A stretch of DNA of 45,827 bases from an uncultured Candidatus Saccharibacteria bacterium (GTDB taxonomy: Bacteria > Patescibacteriota > Minisyncoccia > Phycocordibacterales > UBA2100): the NCBI GenBank assembly GCA_964419595.1, contig CAYQQI010000002.1:1-45827 (forward strand), in the 5' to 3' direction. Position numbers and translations under genes: made by a program. This document shows, one piece after another, positions 5,061-30,329 of this stretch. Every line of letters begins with the position of its first letter. Within the stretch, counting starts at the first letter, position 1. The notes beneath the pieces are model-generated. The model was given only the letters and a program-made list of their open reading frames with translations. It searched no databases and was not told the origin of the DNA.

Positions 5061-5082
5061 CATCCCGAAAGGGGTGTTTTTT
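5061..5082 (+). terminator. Rho-independent terminator after the fasciclin gene
   Basis: CATCCC-GAAA-GGGGTG forms the stem-loop, followed by TTTTTT. The GTG start at 5074 in the track lies inside this terminator. Confidence 0.6.
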
Positions 5083-5112
5083 GGCTGGAAAGCGTGTTAT
5101 TATCGCGCCAAC

Positions 5113-5958
5113 ATGCCCGAATCAGTCATGACAGAACATGCTGCCGAGGCCGCTCAGATGAGCGGCCTGCCAGTAGGAGCGGAGCACGCCGCTGAGGCGG
5201 CTCATCAGAGCGGCATTCACGTGGCGCTCTCCGCTGAGCAGATCGGCTCGTTCTTCGGCATTCCTCTTACCAATACACTGCTCATGAGCTGGGTCGTGAT
5301 GGTGCTGCTTTTTGGAATCGCTTTGTATGTGCGAGCAAATTTGAGCCTCATCCCGGGTAAATTTCAGACATTCATTGAGCTGCTGTTCAGCTATATTCAG
5401 GAATTCATTGAGACAACTCTAGAAGACAAAGTGTGGGCGCGCCGCATTTTTCCGCTTTTGCTTACTCTCTTTCTTTTTATCGCGCTTGCGAATCTTATTG
5501 AGTTCACACCGGGCATCGGCTCTATCACCGTGTTACATGATGGAGAGACCGCCCCCTTGCTTCGCAGTATGAACACCGACCTGAATGTAACTCTTGCGCT
5601 CACGTTCATTGTCATGTTTGTCATTGAGTTCGCCGGTATCTTTGCGCTCGGATTGTTCAAGTACGCGGGCAAATTCATCAACTTTTCTTCACCCATCAAC
5701 TTTATCGTCGGGCTTATCGAGCTGGTTTCGGAGCTTTCGCGATTCATTTCCTTCTCGTTCCGACTCTTTGGCAATATTTTTGCAGGCGAAGTACTGATAG
5801 CGGTGGTGTCGTTCTTTGTACCGTACTTCTTGCCTGCGCCGGTCATGGCATTCGAAATGTTCGTCGGTATCGTACAGGGAGCCGTGTTTGCGTTGCTCAC
5901 GCTGTTCTTCGTCAAAATGGCGATCGCGGAACCGCACGGGAGCCATGCTGATCATTAG
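5113..5958 (+). CDS. atpB: F0F1 ATP synthase subunit a
   Basis: It is a polytopic membrane protein with the conserved block SFSFRLFGNIFAGE (essential Arg) and is the first gene of the atp cluster. I moved the start to the ATG at 5113, downstream of the terminator and of TGtTATTAT (5095-5103). Confidence 0.9.
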   Translation: MPESVMTEHAAEAAQMSGLPVGAEHAAEAAHQSGIHVALSAEQIGSFFGIPLTNTLLMSWVVMVLLFGIALYVRANLSLIPGKFQTFIELLFSYIQEFIETTLEDKVWARRIFPLLLTLFLFIALANLIEFTPGIGSITVLHDGETAPLLRSMNTDLNVTLALTFIVMFVIEFAGIFALGLFKYAGKFINFSSPINFIVGLIELVSELSRFISFSFRLFGNIFAGEVLIAVVSFFVPYFLPAPVMAFEMFVGIVQGAVFALLTLFFVKMAIAEPHGSHADH

Positions 5959-6034: not shown

Positions 6035-6262
6035 ATGGACATGGAATCAGCACGACTCGTCGGTATGGCGATCGCAGCAGGCTTCGGCGTGCTCGGGCCT
6101 GGCATTGGTGTGGGTCTCATCGGCGCAGGTGCAATGGAAGCAATCGGACGCAATCCGGATGCGGCAGGCAAGATCGTTTCAAACATGATCCTTCCGATCG
6201 TGTTCTCCGAAGCGCTCGGCATCCTGGCACTCGTGGTCGCATTCATTATTAAGTTCGTGTAA
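6035..6262 (+). CDS. atpE: F0F1 ATP synthase subunit c
   Basis: 75 aa forming a two-helix hairpin. It has the GxGxGxG-type helix 1 (GPGIGVGLIGAGA), an RNPD loop, and the carboxylate in FSEALGI. Confidence 0.9.
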   Translation: MDMESARLVGMAIAAGFGVLGPGIGVGLIGAGAMEAIGRNPDAAGKIVSNMILPIVFSEALGILALVVAFIIKFV

Positions 6263-6274
6263 TCCTCACCCTGT

Positions 6275-6727
6275 ATGGAAGGTCTCGTATCAGCATTCGG
6301 ATTGGATCTGCGCCTCCTGATCATTCAGGCGGTGAATTTTGCCGTGCTGCTCGGAGGCTTGACCTATTTTCTCTATACTCCGGTCATGAACATGATCGCA
6401 AAGCGTCGGGAGTTGGTTGCCGAGGGGGTGCGTTCCGCTCAAGAAGCGGATCGTGTGCTCGCGCATTCCAAAGAACAGGGTGAGGGGATCATTGGAAGCG
6501 CCGCGCGCGAAGCGGAAGCACTCGTGGCCTCTGCGCGAGCTCGCGCCGATGAGAAGGGACTTGAGATGGTAAAGGAAGCGGAACACAAGGCGCATGCTGT
6601 CATAGCGGATGCTACAGCGCGCGCCGAGGAGGCAAAGCGATTGGCGCTCATGGAGAGCGAAAAGGAAATTACACGTGCTGCGGTTTTGGCCGCGGAAAAG
6701 ATCTTACGCCGCGAGCTCGCGAAGTAA
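6275..6727 (+). CDS. atpF: F0F1 ATP synthase subunit b
   Basis: 150 aa with one N-terminal TM helix followed by a long charged Ala/Glu/Arg-rich helix. It lies between atpE and atpH. Confidence 0.8.
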   Translation: MEGLVSAFGLDLRLLIIQAVNFAVLLGGLTYFLYTPVMNMIAKRRELVAEGVRSAQEADRVLAHSKEQGEGIIGSAAREAEALVASARARADEKGLEMVKEAEHKAHAVIADATARAEEAKRLALMESEKEITRAAVLAAEKILRRELAK

Positions 6728-6733
6728 ACGGGT

Positions 6734-7123
6734 ATGGAAAAGCTGTACGCACAGGCACTATGGCAACTCGTCTCAAACGGGATGGACGCCAAGGATGCAG
6801 TGCATGCGATCTATGACCGACTGGAGAACGAAGGTCGCGCAATACTTATGCCGCGCGTTGCGCATGCGTTTTTTCGTATCGCGGAGCGCGAAGCAAGAAA
6901 GTCGGACTACACGCTGAGCATCGCGCGGGAGGAAGATTTGGCACATGCGAAGAAGGAATTAAAAGCGTATCACGAGGATCTGGGGATCGATTTCGATAAC
7001 CTCAAGACGCAAGTCGACGATTCATTGATCGGCGGCTGGCGCCTCGAGGGAAACGAGAGGCTCGTGGACGTTTCCTACAAAAAACAGTTACTCGAAATGT
7101 ACAACAGCGTCACGCGCGTATAA
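6734..7123 (+). CDS. atpH: F0F1 ATP synthase subunit delta (short form, 129 aa)
   Basis: It lies between atpF and atpA. The C-terminal block LIGGWRLEGNERLVDVSYKKQLLEMY matches the OSCP/delta C-terminus. Confidence 0.65.
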   Translation: MEKLYAQALWQLVSNGMDAKDAVHAIYDRLENEGRAILMPRVAHAFFRIAEREARKSDYTLSIAREEDLAHAKKELKAYHEDLGIDFDNLKTQVDDSLIGGWRLEGNERLVDVSYKKQLLEMYNSVTRV

Positions 7124-7141
7124 CAGATAGTCATCATTACT

Positions 7142-8713
7142 ATGGATTCATCAACGGTACAGAAGATCATCAAGGAGATCGAACACATCTCGCCGAAGTC
7201 ACACTCGGAGCATGTGGGTCGTGTGGTTTCCGTGGGCGACGGCGTTGTCGCTATAGACGGTCTTTCAAAGTCGGTGATGTCGGAGATCATCATCTTCGAC
7301 GAAGAGAAGGGAAAGAAGCTCGCAGATGCGGTGGAGGAAAGCTCGGTACTCTGGGGGCTCATACTGAATCTTGAAGAGGATGGAGTGAAGGCGACCATTC
7401 TCGGCGATACCTCGCGCGTAAAAGAGGGCATGACGGTAAAGTCGACCGGCAAAGTACTCTCCATCCCGGCAGGCGAGAGCATGCTCGGGCGGGTCGTGAA
7501 CGTGCTTGGCGAGCCCATAGACGGAAAAGGACCGTTCACCAACACCACCATGATGCCTGTTGAGCGCGAAGCCTCGGGTGTTATCGACCGAAAGTCGGTC
7601 TCCGTACCGCTTCAGACCGGTATCAAGGCAATCGATGCCATGATCCCGATCGGTCGCGGACAACGTGAACTCATAATCGGTGACCGGGGTACCGGTAAAA
7701 CGACCGTTGCAATCGACGCTATCATCAACCAAAAGAACGAACCGGAAGACAAACGACCCATTTGTATTTACGTCGCGATCGGTCAAAAAGAGTCAAAAAC
7801 AGCTCGAATCGTGCAGCAGTTGCGCGAGACCGGTGCGCTTGAGTACACCATCATCGTTGATGCTCCTGCCTCAGCGCCGGCTGCACTCCAATACCTGGCA
7901 CCGTTCAGCGGTGTGTCCATCGGTGAATACTTCATGGACAAGGGAAAGGACGTGCTCATCATCTACGACGATCTCTCTAAGCAGGCGGTCGCGTACCGTG
8001 AGCTCTCACTCTTGCTTCGACGCCCGCCGGGCCGCGAGGCATACCCGGGCGATGTGTTCTACTTGCACTCCCGATTGCTTGAGCGCGCAGCACGCCTCTC
8101 TGATGAAAAAGGCGGCGGCTCCATTACTGCGCTTCCTATCGTAGAAACGCAGGAAGGGGACGTGTCAGGCTACATTCCGACGAACGTGATTTCCATCACC
8201 GACGGTCAGATGTTCGTTACGGCGGAGCTCTTCAACAAGGGCATCCGACCGGCGATTGACGTGGGCATTTCGGTCTCCCGCGTGGGCTCTGCGGCGCAAG
8301 CGAAGTCGATGAAATCGGTTGCGGGCGGTTTGAAGCTTGAACTCGCACAGTTCCGCGAACTGGAGGCATTCATGCAATTCGCGTCAGACCTTGATAAGGC
8401 GACGGCGGACCGTATCGCATCCGGCCAGCGCATGGTGGAAGTACTCAAACAAAAGAACGGTCACCCCATCCCGCTCGAAAAGCAGGTAGCGATGATATTC
8501 ATTGCCAACAAAGGCTTCCTGCATCAGACGCCGGTCAATAAGGTTGTCGAAGTGGAGCGATTGTTCATGGAATTCATGGACGGCCAATATTCCCACGTGC
8601 TGGAGACCATCAAAACGAGCGCGGTGCTCTCCGACGAATCAAAGGAGGCGATTCTCAAAGCAGGCGAGGAGTTCAAACTCGCTCATCCGGAACTCTTCAC
8701 ACTCAGGGTATAG
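7142..8713 (+). CDS. atpA: F0F1 ATP synthase subunit alpha
   Basis: 523 aa with the Walker A motif GDRGTGKT. The blocks [28 protein letters not shown] and ITDGQ are also present. Confidence 0.97.
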
Positions 8714-8758: not shown

Positions 8759-8792
8759 CTACAACCTAAAACCTACAACCTAAAACCTACCT
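8759..8792 (+). repeat. Tandem 14-nt repeat CTACAACCTAAAAC x2.4 abutting the atpG start codon
   Basis: The direct repeat is read from the sequence: units at 8759-8772 and 8773-8786, and a partial unit at 8787-8792. The ATG is at 8793. No Shine-Dalgarno motif is present. Confidence 0.7.
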
Positions 8793-9707
8793 ATGGCGAA
8801 CCTAAAGACAATTAAACAGAAGATAATCTCGTATAAGAAAACGGGAACAGTAACGCACGCCATGGAGGCGGTTTCTGCGGTAAAGATGCGCAAGGCTCAG
8901 GAGCGCGCAATTTCGGGCCGCTCGTATGCCGCAGCAGCACTCACGGTACTTGAACGAATTTCGAGCACGGCAGATATGTCGCGACACACTTTGATGAGCG
9001 AGCGCGCCGGGAAGACCGCATTTATCGTCGTAACCTCCGATAAAGGGTTGGCCGGCTCACTGAACAGCGCCGTCATCCGCAAAGTGGAAACAGAAATAGC
9101 AAAACGCGGACTTTCTAAGGAAGAGATAGTTATGGCGTGTATCGGACGTCGCGGCGGAGACCACTTTCATGCCCGCGGATTCGATGTGCGACTGCGCGAG
9201 CTCAACAAGCGCGACGATGTGACGGAGGCAGAAATGCGAACCGTCACCGACCTACTGCTTTCCTGGCACCAGTCAGGGGAAATAGGAACCGCTATCATTG
9301 CGTACCAGAACTTTGTATCCACATTTGAACAGGAGCCGACGGTACGACAGATCGTACCGATAACCGCAGACCTGATGCGGGAGACCGTAAAAGGCATTCG
9401 ACCGGCGCGCGGTAAATACGCACCTTCCGGCGAAGTGTCGCAGGCACCGGCTTCCTACGAGATAGAACCGGATTCAGATGCGGTACTTGCGGTGTTGCTC
9501 CCGAAGCTTTTGAACATCGCCGTGTATCACGGATTACTCGAAAGCAAAGCATCGGAGCACTCGGCGCGCATGGTTTCCATGAAAAGTGCTACAGATAAAG
9601 CGAAAGAAATGGCACACAACCTTACGCGCACCTTTAACAAGGTCCGACAGGCTGCGATCACCCGTGAAGTTTCTGAGATAACCTCCGGCATGGAGGCGAT
9701 GCGCTAA
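8793..9707 (+). CDS. atpG: F0F1 ATP synthase subunit gamma
   Basis: 304 aa. The N-terminus is MANLKTIKQKIISYKKTGTVTHAMEAVSAVKMRKAQ. The C-terminus is FNKVRQAAITREVSEITSG. Confidence 0.93.
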   Translation: MANLKTIKQKIISYKKTGTVTHAMEAVSAVKMRKAQERAISGRSYAAAALTVLERISSTADMSRHTLMSERAGKTAFIVVTSDKGLAGSLNSAVIRKVETEIAKRGLSKEEIVMACIGRRGGDHFHARGFDVRLRELNKRDDVTEAEMRTVTDLLLSWHQSGEIGTAIIAYQNFVSTFEQEPTVRQIVPITADLMRETVKGIRPARGKYAPSGEVSQAPASYEIEPDSDAVLAVLLPKLLNIAVYHGLLESKASEHSARMVSMKSATDKAKEMAHNLTRTFNKVRQAAITREVSEITSGMEAMR

Positions 9708-9709
9708 AT

Positions 9710-10147
9710 ATGATGGCCGAGCGCTTCAAGATGCCCGTAGCAGTATTTCTTATTTTAGAGAAGGACGGAAAGATCTGGTTGCAGCGTCGTTTCAATACCG
9801 GCTATAGAGATGGCCATTACGACCTCCCATCTGGGCACGTAGACGGTGGTGAGTCCGCAATACATGCGGTGATTCGTGAAGGGAAAGAGGAAGCAGGAGT
9901 AGATATCCGACCGGACGCACTGAGCGGAAAACACATCCTACACAATAACGACGGGATGGAATATATCCAGGTTTTTTTCAAAGCGGAAGCGTGGACAGGA
10001 GAGCCGAAGAATATGGAGCCGGATAAATGTGACGACTCAGGCTGGTTTCCCTTGCGTGATCTGCCGCAGCCGATGATACCGCATGTAGCTCAGGCTCTTC
10101 AAAATATACAGAATGACGTTCTATACAGCGACATGAACGTAGAATAG
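9710..10147 (+). CDS. NUDIX hydrolase
   Basis: 145 aa with the NUDIX box GHVDGGESAIHAVIREGKEEAGV (Gx5Ex7REUxEExGU). It starts 2 nt after the atpG stop. Confidence 0.85.
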   Translation: MMAERFKMPVAVFLILEKDGKIWLQRRFNTGYRDGHYDLPSGHVDGGESAIHAVIREGKEEAGVDIRPDALSGKHILHNNDGMEYIQVFFKAEAWTGEPKNMEPDKCDDSGWFPLRDLPQPMIPHVAQALQNIQNDVLYSDMNVE

Positions 10148-10149
10148 TC

Positions 10150-10749
10150 ATGCGAGAACTACTTCTAGCCACTGCCAACAAGGGAAAAATACCGGGACTC
10201 CTCGAGGGTTTGAAGGGCACTCCGTTCGTCTTTAAAACACTGAATGATGTCGAAATAGCTGCGGATTTGAAGGTGGCTGAGCCGGGTACAACGTATGAAT
10301 CAAACGCACTGATAAAGGCGTTCATCTACGGAAAGCATACGAATATGCTTTCCATTGCCGATGACTCCGGACTGGAGCTTGATGCTTTCCCAGATGCGAT
10401 GGGAGTGCAAACCGCACACTACTTTCCGGGTACTCGTGAAGAGAGGGTCGCCCAACTGCTGGAAATGATGAAAGACATACCGACAGAGCGGCGTACATGC
10501 AGATACAAGGATGTGATAGCCATCTACGATCCATTGAGTGACAAAGTACGATTTGCACACGGAGTCACTGAAGGAGTGCTCGCTACAGAAGCTATCGGAG
10601 AGAGGGGATTCGGGTTTGACCAACTCTTTATTTCCAACGACTTGGGCAGGGCTTTCGGTGTTCTAACAGACGCGGAAACAGACAGTGTGAGTCACCGAGG
10701 CCGCGCACTTAAAAAAGCAAAAGAGATACTGCTTTCAGAATTTATATGA
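10150..10749 (+). CDS. rdgB: RdgB/HAM1 non-canonical purine NTP (dITP/XTP) pyrophosphatase
   Basis: 199 aa with LLLATANKGK at the N-terminus, DDSGLELDA, GFGFDQLF, and the C-terminal SHRGRAL. Confidence 0.85.
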   Translation: MRELLLATANKGKIPGLLEGLKGTPFVFKTLNDVEIAADLKVAEPGTTYESNALIKAFIYGKHTNMLSIADDSGLELDAFPDAMGVQTAHYFPGTREERVAQLLEMMKDIPTERRTCRYKDVIAIYDPLSDKVRFAHGVTEGVLATEAIGERGFGFDQLFISNDLGRAFGVLTDAETDSVSHRGRALKKAKEILLSEFI

Positions 10750-11168
10750 GTGAACCGCAGAAATACCCCCGCGTCGGGACCGCGATATGGATCGTAAAAG
10801 ACGGCAAGGTCTTACTCGGTAAACGGGAACGCGGAGATGAAGTCGGTACCTGGTGTGTACCGGGCGGAGGAATCGAACTCTACGAGGGCCCCACGGCCGG
10901 CGCCATGCGCGAAGTCGCCGAGGAGACCAAGTTGACGATTGATACTCCGAAATTAATGGCAGTAATGAACGATGTCGACAAGGAGGGCGAAAGACACTGG
11001 ATAACGATGCATTTTGTGGCCAATTGGGTGTCGGGTACCGCGAAAGATGCTCCCGGGGAGATAGGGAATTGGACCTGGTTCTCATTTGAGAAGCTCCCGG
11101 AGAATCTCTTCGGTGCGACTAGAAATTTCGCAAAAAACGGCTATAATCCTCTGAACTTCAACAAATAA
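10746..11168 (+). CDS. NUDIX hydrolase (MutT-like)
   Basis: 140 aa with the NUDIX box GGGIELYEGPTAGAMREVAEETKL. It has a 4-nt ATGA overlap with rdgB. Confidence 0.85.
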   Translation: MSEPQKYPRVGTAIWIVKDGKVLLGKRERGDEVGTWCVPGGGIELYEGPTAGAMREVAEETKLTIDTPKLMAVMNDVDKEGERHWITMHFVANWVSGTAKDAPGEIGNWTWFSFEKLPENLFGATRNFAKNGYNPLNFNK

Positions 11169-12578
<1,410 letters not shown>

Positions 12579-12835: not shown

Positions 12836-12884
12836 TCCACACGTACTCCTCCCCGAGGAGATGTAGAGAGGTACAATATTCGCA

Positions 12885-14156
12885 ATGCCGCGGATAGTTC
12901 TCTACACGGTGGTTCTCATCATTTTCTTCTCATTCGGGAGTGCATACGCCGCCAATACCATCAACTGGACCTTCTACGGTCCCGGCGCGAAAGGGAGAAT
13001 GCAGGGTCCGATGACCGCCGCCTCGAACAATCTCGAAGGCAATAATTCGATCCGAACGCTCGATGATGTGCGAACCGGAAAATCAAAATACGTAACGCTC
13101 GCATCTGCAAATTCGATGCGAGGACGTTACTACTGTATCGGAACCGTTACGTACACATCGCCGTCCGGTAATGGAGGGGACGGGAAGACACACACGATTG
13201 AAAATGTGGTGGGATATGTGCACGACACCGGATGCGCATTCAACGGTACGTGCTCGTGCGGATTCGTAGCACAATTTTGTGACGGCAAAGCGCGCCCTGA
13301 GAAAATGGATATCGCGATCGGCAATTTCACGGGCTATGAGGCGCTCGAGGCTTCTAATTACATAATAAAGAATCCGAATCGCGCACCCAAGGATTGGACG
13401 CAGCTTGCAGGTCTCCCTCAAAAATCGGCAGGTGCACAGTCCGCGGTGAACGCCTGCGGCGGGGAGATACGGGAGCAGGGAATGCCCACACAGGCTCCGT
13501 ATGTATCGCCCCCGTACACACCGCAGCCGCCCGCTACGCCTTCGACCGGGTCGTACCACAATCCGCAAACGTCACAGTCCGCTCCGCAGCCGCAGTCCTC
13601 TCCGACAGGAGGGTCGGCCGGAAGCGGCATGTCGACCGTCGGACAATCGTATACGACCCCGAGCTACGCCGGTACTCCCATGCCAACAACCGCCACGAAT
13701 ATTCCGACCCCGAACATGACACAAAGCCCTCTGCTAACGACATTGTTCCAGCAATCCAGCGCAACTTCCGGCATACGCTCGGTACAAAATACTGCACAGG
13801 CCATTGTTGATCTCTTTACCGTTCCCAATACGAACGCAGGAAGAGCTACTCAGGCGCAGATGGGGCAAAACGTTGTGTTGCCGTTTGATGTGAATGCATC
13901 AAACGTCTCGCTCATGGCGGTTTCTCAGCTTGAGGGATCTGGTCTCGTACCGCCACAGAACATTATTTCGTCAGAGGTACCGCGGCCGAATAATCCGGTG
14001 CTCGCCGCTCTTCAACAGGAAAGCACCTTTGACGCACGTACTGCAGTACAAACTCAGGCAGAATATTCGCCCGCAACAACGAACGCCTTCCTATCCATTT
14101 TGGCGTCATTCCGTACGTTGTTTGAAAGCATGATGCGACTCCTCACGCGTTCGTAG
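12885..14156 (+). CDS. Secreted protein: Cys-containing 3D/DPBB-like N-domain, P/Q/S/T-rich linker, unknown C-domain
   Basis: The signal peptide is MPRIVLYTVVLIIFFSFGSAYA. The stretch KYVTLASA...YVHDTGCAF...KMDIAIG resembles a 3D domain. A low-complexity region covers aa 200-285 (nt 13482-13739). GGTACAAT-N7-ATG precedes the start. Confidence 0.6.
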   Translation: MPRIVLYTVVLIIFFSFGSAYAANTINWTFYGPGAKGRMQGPMTAASNNLEGNNSIRTLDDVRTGKSKYVTLASANSMRGRYYCIGTVTYTSPSGNGGDGKTHTIENVVGYVHDTGCAFNGTCSCGFVAQFCDGKARPEKMDIAIGNFTGYEALEASNYIIKNPNRAPKDWTQLAGLPQKSAGAQSAVNACGGEIREQGMPTQAPYVSPPYTPQPPATPSTGSYHNPQTSQSAPQPQSSPTGGSAGSGMSTVGQSYTTPSYAGTPMPTTATNIPTPNMTQSPLLTTLFQQSSATSGIRSVQNTAQAIVDLFTVPNTNAGRATQAQMGQNVVLPFDVNASNVSLMAVSQLEGSGLVPPQNIISSEVPRPNNPVLAALQQESTFDARTAVQTQAEYSPATTNAFLSILASFRTLFESMMRLLTRS

Positions 14157-14210
14157 TCTTCTCCACATCGTAAAGTCAGATCCGAGTGCGGTAACGGTAC
14201 AATAAACACA

Positions 14211-19675: not shown

Positions 19676-19759
19676 ATGAAGTCGTACGATCATAAGAAAA
19701 TCGAGCAAAAGTGGCCCTCCTTCGCTAAAGCTACGGACGGGCAAGCAACGAGTGTATGA
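19676..19759 (+). CDS. 27-codon upstream ORF that duplicates the leuS N-terminus (MKSYDHKKIEQKWPSFAKATDGQATSV)
   Basis: Codons 1-13 match leuS codons 1-13 at 12 of 13 residues. Its TGA stop overlaps the leuS ATG (ATGA at 19756-19759). Confidence 0.35.
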   Translation: MKSYDHKKIEQKWPSFAKATDGQATSV

Positions 19760-22700
19760 AATCTTACGATCACAAAAAGATCGAGAAAAAGTGGCAGCGT
19801 CAATGGCAGACAGACGGCGCATATAAAACAGATACCGATACATCGAAACCGAAATATTATGTGCTCGACATGTTCCCGTATCCCTCGGGCGCAGGATTGC
19901 ACGTAGGACACCCGAAAGGATACATCGCCTCCGACATCGTTGCTCGAAAGAAGAGAATGGAAGGGTATCGTGTACTCCATCCGATGGGCTGGGATGCGTT
20001 CGGGCTTCCGGCAGAAAATTACGCCATCAAAACAGGCACACCTCCGCAGCAAACAACCGATGAGTCGATAAAAACATTTAAATCTCAGATATCGAATCTT
20101 TCACTCTCATACGATTGGGATCGAGAAATAGGCAGTCACCGCCCGGACTATTATCGCTGGACCCAGTGGCTTTTTACGAAATTCTTCGAGAAGGGACTCG
20201 TGTATAAGAAGAAGGCGCTCGTGAATTGGGACCCGGTGGACCAAACGGTTCTTGCGAACGAACAGGTGCTGCCCGACGGTACAGCGGAGCGTTCGGGAGC
20301 GGTGGTGGAAAAGAAGGACCTTGAACAATGGTTCTATAAGATCACTGACTACGCCGATGAGCTCGCGGATAGTTTGGATATTATCGACTGGCCTGAGAGC
20401 ACGAAAGTGAACCAACGGAACTGGATAGGCCGCTCTGAGGGAGCGGAAATTGATTTCGGACTCAAAATGGGTAAGCCGATGAAGTACGTATTTCTGCACG
20501 GATATAAAAGTCATGCGGACCGACCAAGACACAAATGGTATCGAGAACAGCTTGAAGCACTTGGTCACTCGGTAGTAATACCTGAACTCCCAAACACAGA
20601 TGAACCCGACGAAGGCGAGCAGGTTTCGGCTGCGTTGAATGCGGCTGAGCTCGACGAAAACACGATACTCGTCGGTCACAGCCTCGGAGGCATCGTTGCC
20701 ATGAAGGCGCTTCTAAAGTCAGGAAAGAAAATTGCCGGTCTGGTGCTCGTTGCCCCGGCTATGGGACCGTCAAAAGATAATGCTCCGAAACCGTTCCACA
20801 GTACGTTCACATGGGATATCGATCACGAGGCTATACAAAAGCAGACGCAGTACCGCGTGGTGCTTTCTGATCTTCAGGAGGTTCATCGCGTAAACTATTT
20901 GCAAGATCTGTCGGAGAAATTGGAAGCGAAGCTTATAGAGACAAAAGCGGAAGCCGCGCATTTTACCGCAGATAAAGAACCCGATGTATTGATGTGGATG
21001 CGACCGACAATTCGAGTGTTCACGACACGTCCCGACACACTATACGGCGCAACGTATTTAGTACTCGCACCCGAGCATCCATGGGTAACACTCGCGCTCG
21101 GTCACAATACGGTACTTAAAAATAACGACGAGGTGGCGGCGTATGTGGAAGCGTCAAAGAAAAAGACGGACATCGACAGACTCTCAACTGATAAGGAAAA
21201 GACGGGGGTGAGGCTCGAGGGTGTTGAGGCCGTGAACCCGGCTAATGGAGAGAAGATACCGCTGTACGTGGCAGATTATGTGCTCGCTCACTACGGCACC
21301 GGTGCAATCATGGCAGTACCCGCACACGACGAGCGCGATATGGCATTCGCCCGAAAGTACGATCTTCCCATCTCGCAAGTGGTGATGCCGGTATACGGTT
21401 CAGAAGACAAGCGACCGGATGCCGTGTTTCGAGAGACCATCAACGCAGTCGTGCGACACGACGACGGACGTCTGTTATTCCTCAAGTGGAAAGACTACAA
21501 GTGGGTTACGAACGTTATCGGCGGCGTTGAGCAAGGAGAAACATTGGAGCGCGCCGCAATTCGAGAAGTCCTTGAAGAAACAGGGTATCGGGTGCGCCCG
21601 GTATTTGTATCCCCGATAGCTATTGAGTCGCATTTTTATGCCGATCATAAAAAAGAGTGGCGCTCCCGACTTGATACTCCTATCTTGATGGAGCTTGAAA
21701 GTGACCAAAAAGGACCGCTTTCCGAAGCAGAGCGTGCACAACACGACACGGCATGGATGACATACGAGGAAGCGCTCGCGCACGGACTCTTTCATAACAA
21801 CAAACTGGCACTCGACCTCGCGTTGGGCAAGATCAGTGCCTACAGCGCGCCGCTCTACGGCGAAGGGCAGGTGCTCGTAAACTCCGAAGAATTCAACGGC
21901 ATGAGTGTGGAAGAAGGCAGGAAAGCAATTACCGAGAAGTACGGCCGCATAAAGAAAACGTACAAAATGCGCGACTGGCTTATCTCGCGACAGCGGTACT
22001 GGGGCACTCCGATTCCCATCGTGTACGACCCGGAAGGTAAAGCGCACGCGATACCGGAAGAACACTTGCCGTGGCTACTGCCAACAGACGTCGAATATCT
22101 TCCCAAAGGAACCTCGCCACTCGGGAGCTCACAAGAGCTAAAGAAGAGAACCGAGCGGATATTCGGCAAAGGCTGGACCTCGGAAATAGACACGATGGAT
22201 ACATTTGCCTGCTCCTCGTGGTATTTCTTCCGTTTTGCGGACCCGCACAACGACAAAGAATTTACGTCGAAGCAGGCGCTCGAGGACTGGTTGCCGGTTG
22301 ATCTGTACATCGGAGGAGCAGAGCACACAGTGCTTCATCTTCTCTACGCACGATTTTACACAAAAAGTCTTCGTGACATGGGCTACCTCAATTTCAATGA
22401 GCCGTTCCTCAAACTGCGACACCAGGGACTCATCATGGCGGAAGACGGACGCAAAATGAGCAAACGTTACGGCAACGTGATTAACCCTGACGACATCGTG
22501 GAGAGCTATGGAGCCGATACGCTCCGCGTGTACGAAATGTTCATGGGACCGTTCCAAGACTCCATTGCGTGGAATACGCAGAGCATGATCGGCTCTCGTC
22601 GATTCCTCGAGCGAGCGTGGCGCCTTGCGGATAAACTTGCCGAGGCGCCCGATGAATCTCATGAGCGGTTATTGCACCGGACAATCAAGAAAGTAGGGGA

Positions 22701-23118
22701 GGACATTGATGCGTTTAAGTTCAACACCGCTATTTCAACACTCATGATATTTGTGAACGAATCCGAAAAGAAGGGAGTTACTACAGACCAATACGGGCGA
22801 TTCCTGCAGATGCTCGCACCGTTTGCGCCGCATCTTGCTGAAGAGCGCTGGCACGACATCGGTCACATTGAAAGTATTCTTTCGTTCCCGATGCCAGCTT
22901 ACGACGAAGATATGCTTGAGGAAGATACGGTGACTATAGCCATCCAGATAAACGGTAAGACACGCGGCGAAGTATCTCTCCCTATGGGAACAGGAAAAGC
23001 CGAAACCGAGGCAGCGGCTGCGAGCGCAGTGGAGGCGCGACTACTCGGAAAGAAGGTGACACGCATTATCGTGGTGCCCAACAAACTGGTGAATTTCGTA
23101 ATCCAGTCGGAGGACTAA
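19756..23118 (+). CDS. leuS: Leucyl-tRNA synthetase with two inserted hydrolase-like modules (1120 aa)
   Basis: The canonical LeuRS blocks occur in the usual order: HVGH (aa 49-52), NWIGRSEGAEIDF, FTTRPDT, GTGAIMAVPAHD, RDWLISRQRYWGTPIP, KMSKR, and the C-terminal VVPNKLVNFV. Extra segments lie at aa 238-416 and aa 548-700. Confidence 0.95.
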   Translation: MKSYDHKKIEKKWQRQWQTDGAYKTDTDTSKPKYYVLDMFPYPSGAGLHVGHPKGYIASDIVARKKRMEGYRVLHPMGWDAFGLPAENYAIKTGTPPQQTTDESIKTFKSQISNLSLSYDWDREIGSHRPDYYRWTQWLFTKFFEKGLVYKKKALVNWDPVDQTVLANEQVLPDGTAERSGAVVEKKDLEQWFYKITDYADELADSLDIIDWPESTKVNQRNWIGRSEGAEIDFGLKMGKPMKYVFLHGYKSHADRPRHKWYREQLEALGHSVVIPELPNTDEPDEGEQVSAALNAAELDENTILVGHSLGGIVAMKALLKSGKKIAGLVLVAPAMGPSKDNAPKPFHSTFTWDIDHEAIQKQTQYRVVLSDLQEVHRVNYLQDLSEKLEAKLIETKAEAAHFTADKEPDVLMWMRPTIRVFTTRPDTLYGATYLVLAPEHPWVTLALGHNTVLKNNDEVAAYVEASKKKTDIDRLSTDKEKTGVRLEGVEAVNPANGEKIPLYVADYVLAHYGTGAIMAVPAHDERDMAFARKYDLPISQVVMPVYGSEDKRPDAVFRETINAVVRHDDGRLLFLKWKDYKWVTNVIGGVEQGETLERAAIREVLEETGYRVRPVFVSPIAIESHFYADHKKEWRSRLDTPILMELESDQKGPLSEAERAQHDTAWMTYEEALAHGLFHNNKLALDLALGKISAYSAPLYGEGQVLVNSEEFNGMSVEEGRKAITEKYGRIKKTYKMRDWLISRQRYWGTPIPIVYDPEGKAHAIPEEHLPWLLPTDVEYLPKGTSPLGSSQELKKRTERIFGKGWTSEIDTMDTFACSSWYFFRFADPHNDKEFTSKQALEDWLPVDLYIGGAEHTVLHLLYARFYTKSLRDMGYLNFNEPFLKLRHQGLIMAEDGRKMSKRYGNVINPDDIVESYGADTLRVYEMFMGPFQDSIAWNTQSMIGSRRFLERAWRLADKLAEAPDESHERLLHRTIKKVGEDIDAFKFNTAISTLMIFVNESEKKGVTTDQYGRFLQMLAPFAPHLAEERWHDIGHIESILSFPMPAYDEDMLEEDTVTIAIQINGKTRGEVSLPMGTGKAETEAAAASAVEARLLGKKVTRIIVVPNKLVNFVIQSED

Positions 23119-29828: not shown

Positions 29829-30329
29829 ATGAATATACTCCGACGGCTCGGGATGTATCTTTCGCTTTCTATTATTCAGACAGCGCACGTATCGCGCTAC
29901 ACGCTCGGTAAATTGAGAGGGGAGACCGACTCTCACGGGGTACGCATACTGCTCATAGACGAACGGCGCGTCTTACTCGTGAGTCACTGGTATGCACCGT
30001 GGGCGTGGACACTACCGGGAGGTGGAGTCAATAAAGGAGAAACGCCGGAAGAAGCGGCAATGCGCGAAGCACGCGAAGAAACCGGACTCGAAGTGAATAC
30101 AATCGCAGGGGAGATAGGCACCTACACCGGCACGATGGGGAAGACCGACCGCGTAACCTTTTTCTACACCGGCGACTTTGGTGGCTCGCTCGCGATGCGA
30201 CCTAACTTTGAAATTATGGCGCGCTCGTGGTTTGACATCGATACCTTGCCGGACGAGCTTTCGCCCGGTAATCGCCGCCGCATCGAGGCCTACCGCGACG
30301 GCATTCGCAACGAAACAGGGAAGTGGTAG
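29829..30329 (+). CDS. NUDIX hydrolase
   Basis: 166 aa with the NUDIX box GGGVNKGETPEEAAMREAREETGLEV. Confidence 0.85.
   Translation: MNILRRLGMYLSLSIIQTAHVSRYTLGKLRGETDSHGVRILLIDERRVLLVSHWYAPWAWTLPGGGVNKGETPEEAAMREAREETGLEVNTIAGEIGTYTGTMGKTDRVTFFYTGDFGGSLAMRPNFEIMARSWFDIDTLPDELSPGNRRRIEAYRDGIRNETGKW

Follow-up and report, generated by a model that had tools for sequence, protein, structure and literature searches.

Nucleotide house-cleaning genes in a recurrent slot between atpG and atpD of Candidatus Kaiserbacteria ATP synthase clusters

Introduction

Few bacterial gene clusters are as conserved as ATP synthase operons, and soluble enzymes encoded between the gamma and beta subunits lie outside the textbook picture. 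The accessory genes known from such clusters include atpI and atpZ upstream of atpB, cyanobacterial atp1 and plant CGL160, and atpQ and atpR of the N-ATPases. In cyanobacteria and chloroplasts, atpB-atpE (beta-epsilon) is transcribed apart from the remaining atp genes. Genes of the RdgB/HAM1/MutT type are not known to be linked to atp genes in model organisms, unlike in the locus described here, where they sit among the F1 genes. This locus lies in a 45,827-nt stretch (the window; contig CAYQQI010000002.1, positions 1-45,827, assembly GCA_964419595.1) deposited under the name of an uncultured Candidatus Saccharibacteria bacterium, and carries two NUDIX genes and a Ham1/RdgB-family gene between atpG and atpD.

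Two reports describe accessory non-subunit genes as travelling, and being co-expressed, with ATP synthase genes (PMC4383579, PMC5376962). In the Candidate Phyla Radiation (CPR), a NUDIX domain has been found within a large enzyme, the isoleucyl-tRNA synthetase (IleRS) of SR1, which it interrupts (Kantor et al. 2013, PMC3812714). No description of NUDIX/RdgB or other nucleotide pyrophosphatases in atp operons, or in Patescibacteria, was found in the literature, nor one of an atpD promoter embedded in a cargo gene. The enzymes themselves are ordinary members of known families; what appears to be new is their location inside the atp operon and the promoter arrangement that accompanies it.

A recurrent slot between atpG and atpD

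An earlier note, made from the letters of the window alone, had placed three extra genes between atpBEFHAG and atpDC; all of its open reading frame (ORF) coordinates are exact, and Pfam and NCBIfam agree with the gene order (Table 1). The cluster is an F-type operon that encodes a, c, b, delta, alpha, gamma, beta and epsilon on one strand in the canonical order. Gamma and beta exceed their NCBIfam equivalog cut-offs, and the models for alternate (N-type) ATP synthases stay under theirs. The spacers read earlier were reproduced from the raw sequence: 2 nt between atpG and NUDIX-1, 2 nt between NUDIX-1 and Ham1, a 4-nt ATGA overlap between Ham1 and NUDIX-2, and 21 nt between NUDIX-2 and atpD. 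A pattern scan returned no terminator-like site on the + strand within 9710-11189, matching the reported lack of a hairpin terminator in the block. Scans of the whole window with Rfam (gathering thresholds) and for tRNAs gave no matches, so no riboswitch, attenuator or integration-site tRNA accounts for the block. Its GC content, 0.48-0.53 against 0.53-0.58 for atpA, atpG and atpD, is near the window average in the composition profile and bears no signature of foreign DNA.

To place the block among relatives, tblastn searches with the window proteins were run against 71 species-representative loci and 80 metagenome loci (cited below by L numbers), all from metagenome-assembled genomes (MAGs) with mechanically called ORFs. 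The census comprised 127 non-redundant loci with a gamma identity of at least 50%, 101 of which had a complete atpG|atpD slot; a gap of less than 200 nt counted as empty, and the hidden Markov models for NUDIX and Ham1 carry a lineage bias, having been built from slot genes. Of the 101 complete slots, 44 contained one or more nucleotide hydrolases. The commonest contents were a NUDIX gene (16), the triplet NUDIX-Ham1-NUDIX (8), Ham1 (8) and Ham1-NUDIX (7), followed by YjjX-NUDIX (2) and single cases of YjjX, CYTH and PemK-NUDIX. The arrangement, for which the earlier note had proposed a comparison of synteny, thus recurs across dozens of related genomes.

The closest gamma subunits, at up to 93% identity, belong to MAGs labelled Candidatus Kaiserbacteria, Paceibacterota or Parcubacteria; some record titles ('uncultured Candidatus Saccharibacteria') are at odds with these Kaiserbacteria/Paceibacteria labels of the nearest relatives. 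In more distant Patescibacteria and in other phyla, atpD follows atpG directly. Ham1 homologues at 42-45% identity still lie between atpG and atpD, and the next, non-Kaiserbacteria homologues do not. The block is not a one-off and is found lineage-wide in Candidatus Kaiserbacteria (Paceibacteria, CPR/Patescibacteria). Nor is it confined to one assembly: the window's own Ham1 protein is encoded on five contigs, one of them 497.6 kb long, and the order atpG-NUDIX-Ham1-NUDIX is found on contigs of three separate run assemblies (SRR10388245, SRR10388232, SRR10388236), two of which run on into the gene at the atpD position.

A neighbour-joining (NJ) tree of AtpA, AtpG and AtpD places the window in a clade where all loci except L002 carry the triplet (L001, L003-L006 and L009), and subsets of the triplet occur in many other relatives. 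The NUDIX genes themselves form three clades that correspond to position: behind atpG, ahead of atpD, and between atpA and atpG. In 16 of 21 loci, the first cargo gene, of whichever family, starts 1-5 nt after atpG. About 680 kb of flanking DNA contained no Ham1 gene beyond the slot; the Ham1 matches and strong NUDIX matches that had seemed to lie outside the operon proved to be slot genes located on short contigs.

Families and motifs of the cargo enzymes

The identities proposed earlier for the three proteins, NUDIX, RdgB/HAM1 and NUDIX, are borne out by Pfam and by motif residues. NUDIX-1 (65.1 bits) and NUDIX-2 (71.0 bits) are members of PF00293, whose cut-off is 21.1. Both contain the Nudix box G-x5-E-x7-R-E-U-x-E-E-x-G-U with its catalytic glutamates, as G42-x5-E48-x7-R56-E57-G-K-E60-E61-A-G63-V in NUDIX-1 and G41-x5-E47-x7-R55-E56-V-A-E59-E60-T-K62-L in NUDIX-2. 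The claim that both boxes are intact holds for the R-E..E-E core, which is kept in 17 of 17 nud2 orthologues, and needs correction at the penultimate glycine, a non-catalytic position occupied by lysine in NUDIX-2 and by glycine in 16 of the 17 orthologues. For both proteins, the nearest solved relatives are nucleoside triphosphate (NTP) pyrophosphatases of the MutT/NUDX1/NUDT15/MTH1 type.

Ham1 is a full-length member of PF01725 (133.4 bits against 22.5), its residues 4-192 covering profile positions 1-185 of 186. In Escherichia coli RdgB, the triphosphate-binding and catalytic residues are Lys13, Lys53, Arg87, Asp68/69, FGYDP and SHRG (PMC3899018). Over 191 aligned residues, Ham1 and RdgB share TxNxGK (T8, N10, G12, K13), DDSGL, FGFD and SHRG, and K13, K56 (equivalent to K53), D71-D72, FGFDQ and SHRG of Ham1 align with their RdgB counterparts, the Arg87 position being histidine. 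Two of these motifs, TxNxGK and SHRG, had been recognized in the earlier note as the RdgB hallmarks ATANKGK and SHRGRAL.

Exchange of cargo and a second slot

The content of the slot turns over between close relatives. In L002, nested within the triplet clade, a PF01931 protein (NTPase_I-T, a YjjX-type inosine/xanthosine triphosphatase; 9.5e-41) replaces NUDIX-1 and Ham1. Relatives of this protein, 71-73% identical to it, also lie in the slot, in one case in the order atpG, YjjX, NUDIX, atpD with the same 4-nt overlap between YjjX and NUDIX. Another relative has atpG, a 106-aa ORF, YjjX and atpD, mirroring a locus with atpG, a 106-aa ORF, Ham1 and atpD. In the census, the YjjX-type enzyme occurs in three loci, and Ham1 and YjjX never share a slot. 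Inosine triphosphatases (ITPases) and YjjX proteins are nucleotide pyrophosphatases acting on inosine, deoxyinosine and xanthosine triphosphates (ITP, dITP, XTP), and have a common fold (PMC3899018). The change from Ham1 to YjjX is therefore best described as displacement, in the same place, by a distant family with what its sequence predicts to be the same activity. The literature search found no description of such an in-place exchange of Ham1 and YjjX inside an atp operon.

Other hydrolases have entered the F1 half as well. L044 has a CYTH-domain protein (8.4e-14) in the atpG|atpD slot, and a second slot, atpA|atpG, carries a NUDIX gene of the third clade in five or more loci and a YfbR-like HD 5'-deoxynucleotidase (PF12917, about 1e-17) in three (L008 9206-9985, L012 4480-5265, L072 4059-4760). 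Further atpA|atpG cargo is found at L014 3341-3778, L017 854-1288 and L024 9565-9999. Four superfamilies of nucleotide hydrolases have thus been recruited to this half of the cluster. In about 29 loci, atpA|atpG holds unfamiliar ORFs of 85-250 aa, several of them seemingly rich in coiled coils.

The cargo genes are mosaic relative to their flanks. Compared with L001, the window is 71% identical in nud1, 42% in ham1 and 58% in nud2; compared with L006, the values are 44%, 72% and about 38%. In the same comparisons, identity is 93-98% for atpA, atpG and atpD and 54-91% for ordinary neighbours, and the Ham1 and NUDIX trees disagree with the atp tree. These identities point to exchange of diverged alleles among relatives, probably aided by the highly conserved flanks.

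Several small proteins also follow atpG. About 35 small slot ORFs of relatives (85-266 aa) match no credible Pfam family, and their weak coiled-coil matches fall below the cut-off. Iterative profiles link seven members of a helical family of 107-141 aa (for example L008 10920-11243, L013 8038-8391 and L027 2265-2630). A family of 91-109 aa likewise has seven members (for example L011 10974-11249, L036 10666-10947 and L041 7991-8266), and a pair of membrane proteins occurs at L009 11380-11778 and L026 10908-11237. These three families are fast-evolving and without a Pfam family, and might serve an F1 devoid of the C-terminal domain of epsilon as accessory or regulatory partners. ORFs with PemK/MazF-like toxin domains are present in the atp cluster at L023 10918-11370 and L014 3806-4210, and a 133-aa neighbour in L023 and L055 weakly matches the PADLOC model 'CARF, 2 TMs' (9.6e-6). 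In L034 (10922-12341), the slot contains a partial atpG duplicate (263 aa, 56% identical to the window gamma) between two copies of a 95-aa ORF.

A promoter-like element embedded in nud2

The 3' end of nud2 contains a promoter-like element ahead of atpD. Pairs of -35 and -10 hexamers were scored against TTGAAA/TATAAT (maximum 12) under the assumption of sigma-70-like rules for CPR bacteria. The pair TAGAAA-16-TATAAT scores 11/12, the best in the whole window, in which TATAAT occurs twice on the + strand against about eight occurrences expected by an estimate from base composition. The element spans the nud2 codons T-R-N-F-A-K-N-G-Y-N (ACT-AGA-AAT ... TAT-AAT), 42 nt upstream of the atpD ATG. 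Relatives have the same DNA, ...ACTAGAAATTTC..AAAAACGGCTATAATCC..., 11-42 nt upstream of atpD, and TATAATCC is invariant in an alignment of 11 sequences (A1) that includes L021 and L032, which lack nud2 and in which it is non-coding. Where nud2 reads G-I-N-P in place of G-Y-N-P (L009, L015, L025), a separate TATAAT-like box (TATAAT, TATAGA or TAAACT) stands in the spacer.

Codon choice over the element is almost uniform. In an alignment of 17 orthologues, the codons are ACT in 12 of 13 cases, AAT in 15 of 15, TAT in 13 of 13 and AAT in 16 of 17, and elsewhere in nud2 both codons of the same amino acids are in use. Asparagine and tyrosine codons end in T in 44 of 45 cases within the overlap versus 16 of 38 in the rest of the gene (Fisher p = 5.5e-9). 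This pattern would be a clean example of a promoter kept purely through codon choice in a protein-coding gene. A sigma-70-like promoter at this site most likely drives atpD-atpC. The earlier note had offered TAAATA at 11176-11181 as a possible internal promoter; the hexamer is present there, is not conserved in relatives, and was rejected in favour of the conserved TATAAT at 11142-11147.

As a control, -10 matches of at least 5/6 were sought in the 55 nt preceding the start of every atp gene in 102 non-redundant loci. Such matches precede atpD in 85% of loci, atpA in 68% and atpE in 53%, compared with 14-28% for atpF, atpH, atpG and atpC. Composite scores of at least 10/12 occur before atpD in 40%, atpA in 33% and atpE in 20% of loci, and before the other four genes in at most 1%. 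In the window, TATAAC overlies the atpH stop codon (~7113-7118) upstream of atpA. Promoter-like sites therefore precede the genes of the multi-copy subunits (c, alpha, beta) and are not enriched before atpF, atpH, atpG and atpC, a distribution which suggests that subunit stoichiometry may be set partly by internal promoters.

These results modify the proposal that the three genes are co-transcribed with the F1 subunits. The tight packing (2, 2 and -4 nt) makes coupling to atpG natural, and no terminator breaks the stretch from atpG through the cargo to atpD, but atpD is preceded by a conserved promoter-like element whose synonymous sites are constrained. atpDC is probably under its own promoter and would be joined to the cargo only by read-through. 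Given this putative internal promoter, the cargo is probably the translationally coupled tail of an atpA-atpG segment, not the middle of one unit. The atp cluster of these genomes should accordingly not be annotated as one simple operon.

Further observations concern the element and its surroundings. In L021 (~11340-11387) and L032 (~9760-9809), the non-coding TTAGAAATTTTATTAAAAACGAGTATAATCCTC upstream of atpD closely resembles the 3' coding end of nud2; it may be a remnant of a lost nud2 kept as a promoter, or an ancestral promoter later overlapped by nud2. In several relatives, the atpD TATAAT is merely 11 nt from the ATG. Within the window, GGTACAAT occurs at 12870-12884 and 14196-14210, 7-8 nt upstream of the ATGs of two genes without a Pfam match, at 12885 (423 aa) and 14211 (644 aa). 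Together, GGTACAAT and the close TATAAT hint at leaderless or near-leaderless mRNAs.

Proposed selection at the ATP synthase locus and its alternatives

It is moderately probable that the slot holds coupled nucleotide house-cleaning enzymes kept at the ATP synthase locus by selection, with atpDC on its own promoter. The idea of a functional tie to ATP synthase is strengthened because different nucleotide-hydrolase families have repeatedly been recruited to the same slot, and this recurrent theme argues for selected co-expression over one frozen accident. The three genes, left without room for signals of their own, would be transcribed as the tail of the atpA-atpG message. Translation by coupling to atpG, whose product gamma is present in one copy per complex, would give low, constitutive expression proportional to ATP synthase; the 'coordinated dosage' suggested earlier is in this sense a plausible reading of the gene order. 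Expression of atpD-atpC (beta, three copies per complex) would be boosted by the promoter in the last nud2 codons, with read-through also likely. The enzymes may clear ITP, dITP, XTP and damaged (deoxy)nucleoside triphosphates ((d)NTPs) in an organism that probably relies on salvaged nucleotides. Selection would hold the function at the locus, such that after loss of Ham1 a YjjX-type ITPase fills its place with the same ATGA coupling, and CYTH, YfbR-like HD and third-clade NUDIX proteins would be recruited to the same slot or to the adjoining atpA|atpG.

The favoured reason for the linkage is that sanitation would be matched to the flux of the enzyme producing purine NTPs, possibly as F1Fo also phosphorylates the diphosphates IDP and XDP. 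A stronger version, which appears unlikely, makes F1Fo and the in-operon ITPase/NUDIX enzymes a by-product control pair, where the synthase, in a cell that lives on purine salvage, would make or handle ITP, XTP and other non-canonical NTPs and the pyrophosphatases would clear them at source. On this view the enzymes would be made in a fixed ratio to gamma and might associate with an F1 without the epsilon C-terminal domain. If this version were true, the ATP synthase locus would be a dedicated hub of nucleotide-pool quality control. More generally, the genomic context would argue that ATP synthesis and NTP quality control are physiologically linked in organisms that probably depend on salvage.

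Several points weigh against selection for such a link. The slot is empty in 35 of the 101 loci and contains only unfamiliar ORFs in 22, so the linkage is dispensable, and it also takes unrelated cargo such as PemK/MazF-like, membrane and small helical proteins. The loci are phylogenetically non-independent, and NJ trees of short proteins give an estimate of 6-7 separate insertion events. The passage from Ham1 to YjjX is an exchange between distant families of one ITPase-like superfamily, not between unrelated folds. Both NUDIX proteins are far under the MutT equivalog cut-offs (40.8 and 26.1 bits against 97.9 for TIGR00586; 41.6 and 27.1 against 148 for PRK10776) and are named at the family level, not as MutT. 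Ham1 also misses its equivalog cut-offs (112.5 against 145.35 bits for TIGR00042; 136.7 against 234 for PRK14822), and the position of RdgB Arg87 is histidine in the window's clade and arginine in other slot Ham1 proteins; the slot Ham1 is a divergent member of the Ham1/RdgB family with a family-level name only. That F1Fo phosphorylates IDP and XDP draws on general knowledge and inference, and the literature search on the IDP/ITP specificity of ATP synthase found nothing usable. Finally, gene anatomy, family membership, conservation, cargo turnover and the synonymous-site constraint are shown directly; we infer the substrates and the reason for the linkage, while co-transcription, coupling and promoter activity are read from the sequence with promoter rules assumed to be sigma-70-like in CPR bacteria.

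A tenable, if less probable, alternative is neutral hitch-hiking at a permissive, promoter-buffered atpG|atpD junction, where the conserved flanks act as homology arms that swap cassettes. The unrelated or unfamiliar genes in some slots and the third of relatives with none would be expected on this account, as would the mosaic identities and conflicting trees, and an internal atpD promoter would render the site permissive. Pure neutrality does not predict a functional theme, and yet nucleotide hydrolases of four superfamilies make up about half of all cargo ORFs in the two slots. It also sits poorly with an ITPase position refilled by another family in the same place and with the same coupling, and with the absence of Ham1 elsewhere in the ~680 kb of flanks.

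It is very unlikely that the block instead forms a unit of its own, started by its own promoter and ended by its own terminator, between two separate atp units. A probable promoter of atpD does mean that the cluster is not one simple operon. Against autonomy, the space between the atpG stop and the NUDIX-1 start is merely 2 nt and is similarly short in most relatives, the 3' end of atpG contains no -35/-10 pair of at least 10/12, atpG-proximal sites of this kind are rare in relatives, and no + strand terminator lies within or after the block.

It is hardly credible that the atp cluster has been entered by a mobile element or by an anti-phage one that depletes nucleotides. The high turnover of cargo and the PemK/MazF-like toxin in some slots are what such an element might show, and both NUDIX proteins weakly match the PADLOC candidate PDC-S07 (~1e-10). 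This match amounts to ordinary NUDIX-domain similarity and falls short of a defence assignment, and no PADLOC defence-system model matches Ham1, YjjX, CYTH or the HD protein. No integrase, transposase, repeats or tRNA are present, the GC content is unremarkable, and the genes are orthologues tied to their positions and passed down across the family. An assembly or binning artefact, a chimeric join within the atp operon that the earlier note had named as a possible refutation, is a negligible prospect, with nothing in its favour beyond the metagenomic origin of the genomes and, against it, the same order and identical Ham1 in three run assemblies and on the 497.6-kb contig as well as the same arrangement in dozens of related MAGs from different studies.

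Organization of the locus and neighbouring genes

The window epsilon subunit (atpC, 82 aa) consists of the N-terminal beta-sandwich only, without the C-terminal helical regulatory domain; it matches PF02823 alone and is not a full-length epsilon, and its relatives have the same length (Table 1). The window delta subunit (atpH, 129 aa) covers only the C-terminal two-thirds of the OSCP profile, with relatives of like size, and in L072 b and delta are fused in one gene. The short epsilon and delta may bear on the control of ATP hydrolysis in these organisms. In the atpA-atpG spacer (8759-8792), a G-poor tandem repeat, CTACAACCTAAAAC in two copies followed by CTACCT, lies directly 5' of the atpG ATG and may be an unstructured translation-initiation leader. 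Similar C/A/T-rich repetitive leaders are found 5' of atpD in L019, L040 and L050.

Table 1. Genes of the ATP synthase cluster and the promoter-like element in the window.
Feature	Position	Strand	Basis
atpB (Fo subunit a)	5074-5958	+	ORF list; tblastn orthologues in the same place in relatives; PF00119 on orthologues; start codon uncertain
atpE (c subunit)	6035-6262	+	ORF list; tblastn in relatives; PF00137 on orthologues
atpF (b subunit)	6275-6727	+	ORF list; tblastn in relatives; PF00430 on orthologues
atpH (delta), 129 aa	6734-7123	+	OSCP profile positions 64-170 only
atpA (F1 alpha)	7142-8713	+	PF00006 at 3.9e-82; PF00306
atpG (F1 gamma)	8793-9707	+	TIGR01146, 247 bits, above cut-off
NUDIX-1 ('nud1' type, always first gene after atpG)	9710-10147	+	PF00293 8.8e-18; Nudix box; position-specific clade
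Ham1/RdgB-family non-canonical purine NTP pyrophosphatase	10150-10749	+	PF01725 1.2e-38; RdgB alignment
NUDIX-2 ('nud2' type, always last gene before atpD)	10746-11168	+	PF00293 1.3e-19; orthologue alignment; position-specific clade
Promoter-like TAGAAA-16 nt-TATAAT inside nud2	11120-11147	+	pattern scan; conservation; synonymous-site constraint
atpD (F1 beta)	11190-12578	+	TIGR01039, 782 bits, above cut-off
atpC (epsilon), 82 aa	12587-12835	+	PF02823 at 7.5e-21, residues 6-81

Two further NUDIX sequences lie outside the atp cluster. A fourth NUDIX gene (29829-30329, + strand; 166 aa, PF00293 6.4e-23) is of a type unlike the slot pair. The other is part of a 1120-aa leucyl-tRNA synthetase (LeuRS; 19756-23118, + strand), which has an inserted alpha/beta-hydrolase domain (residues ~245-461) and, just after the editing domain, a NUDIX insert (residues 559-677, PF00293 1.4e-12) resembling that of the SR1 IleRS. 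This LeuRS adds to the window a second instance of NUDIX linked to a major enzyme that handles ATP.

Comparison with known systems

The slot enzymes resemble E. coli RdgB (YggV), HAM1/ITPA and MutT/NUDX1/NUDT15 in family and in catalytic and binding motifs. They presumably share the chemistry of the RdgB/MutT-type enzymes, the conversion of non-canonical (d)NTPs to nucleoside monophosphate and pyrophosphate, and differ from them in scoring below the NCBIfam equivalog cut-offs. The fold and substrates reported as shared within the 'ITPase-like' superfamily of YjjX (PF01931), ITPase and Maf fit the replacement of Ham1 by YjjX in the slot. Like the NUDIX insertions in CPR synthetases, the locus ties NUDIX to a major ATP-using or ATP-making enzyme, by separate operon genes where the synthetases have a one-protein fusion.

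As in cyanobacteria and chloroplasts, beta-epsilon apparently has its own promoter and the break falls between gamma and beta. Unlike in that split, the two parts remain adjacent in Kaiserbacteria, no terminator is seen, and the putative promoter lies within the coding sequence of an inserted NUDIX gene. The slot cargo has in common with atpI/atpZ, atp1/CGL160 and atpQ/atpR that non-subunit genes are linked to atp genes. Genes of the atpI/atpZ type encode small membrane proteins at the 5' end that serve assembly or ion handling, whereas the slot cargo consists of soluble hydrolases between gamma and beta and, unlike those accessory genes, varies between close relatives.

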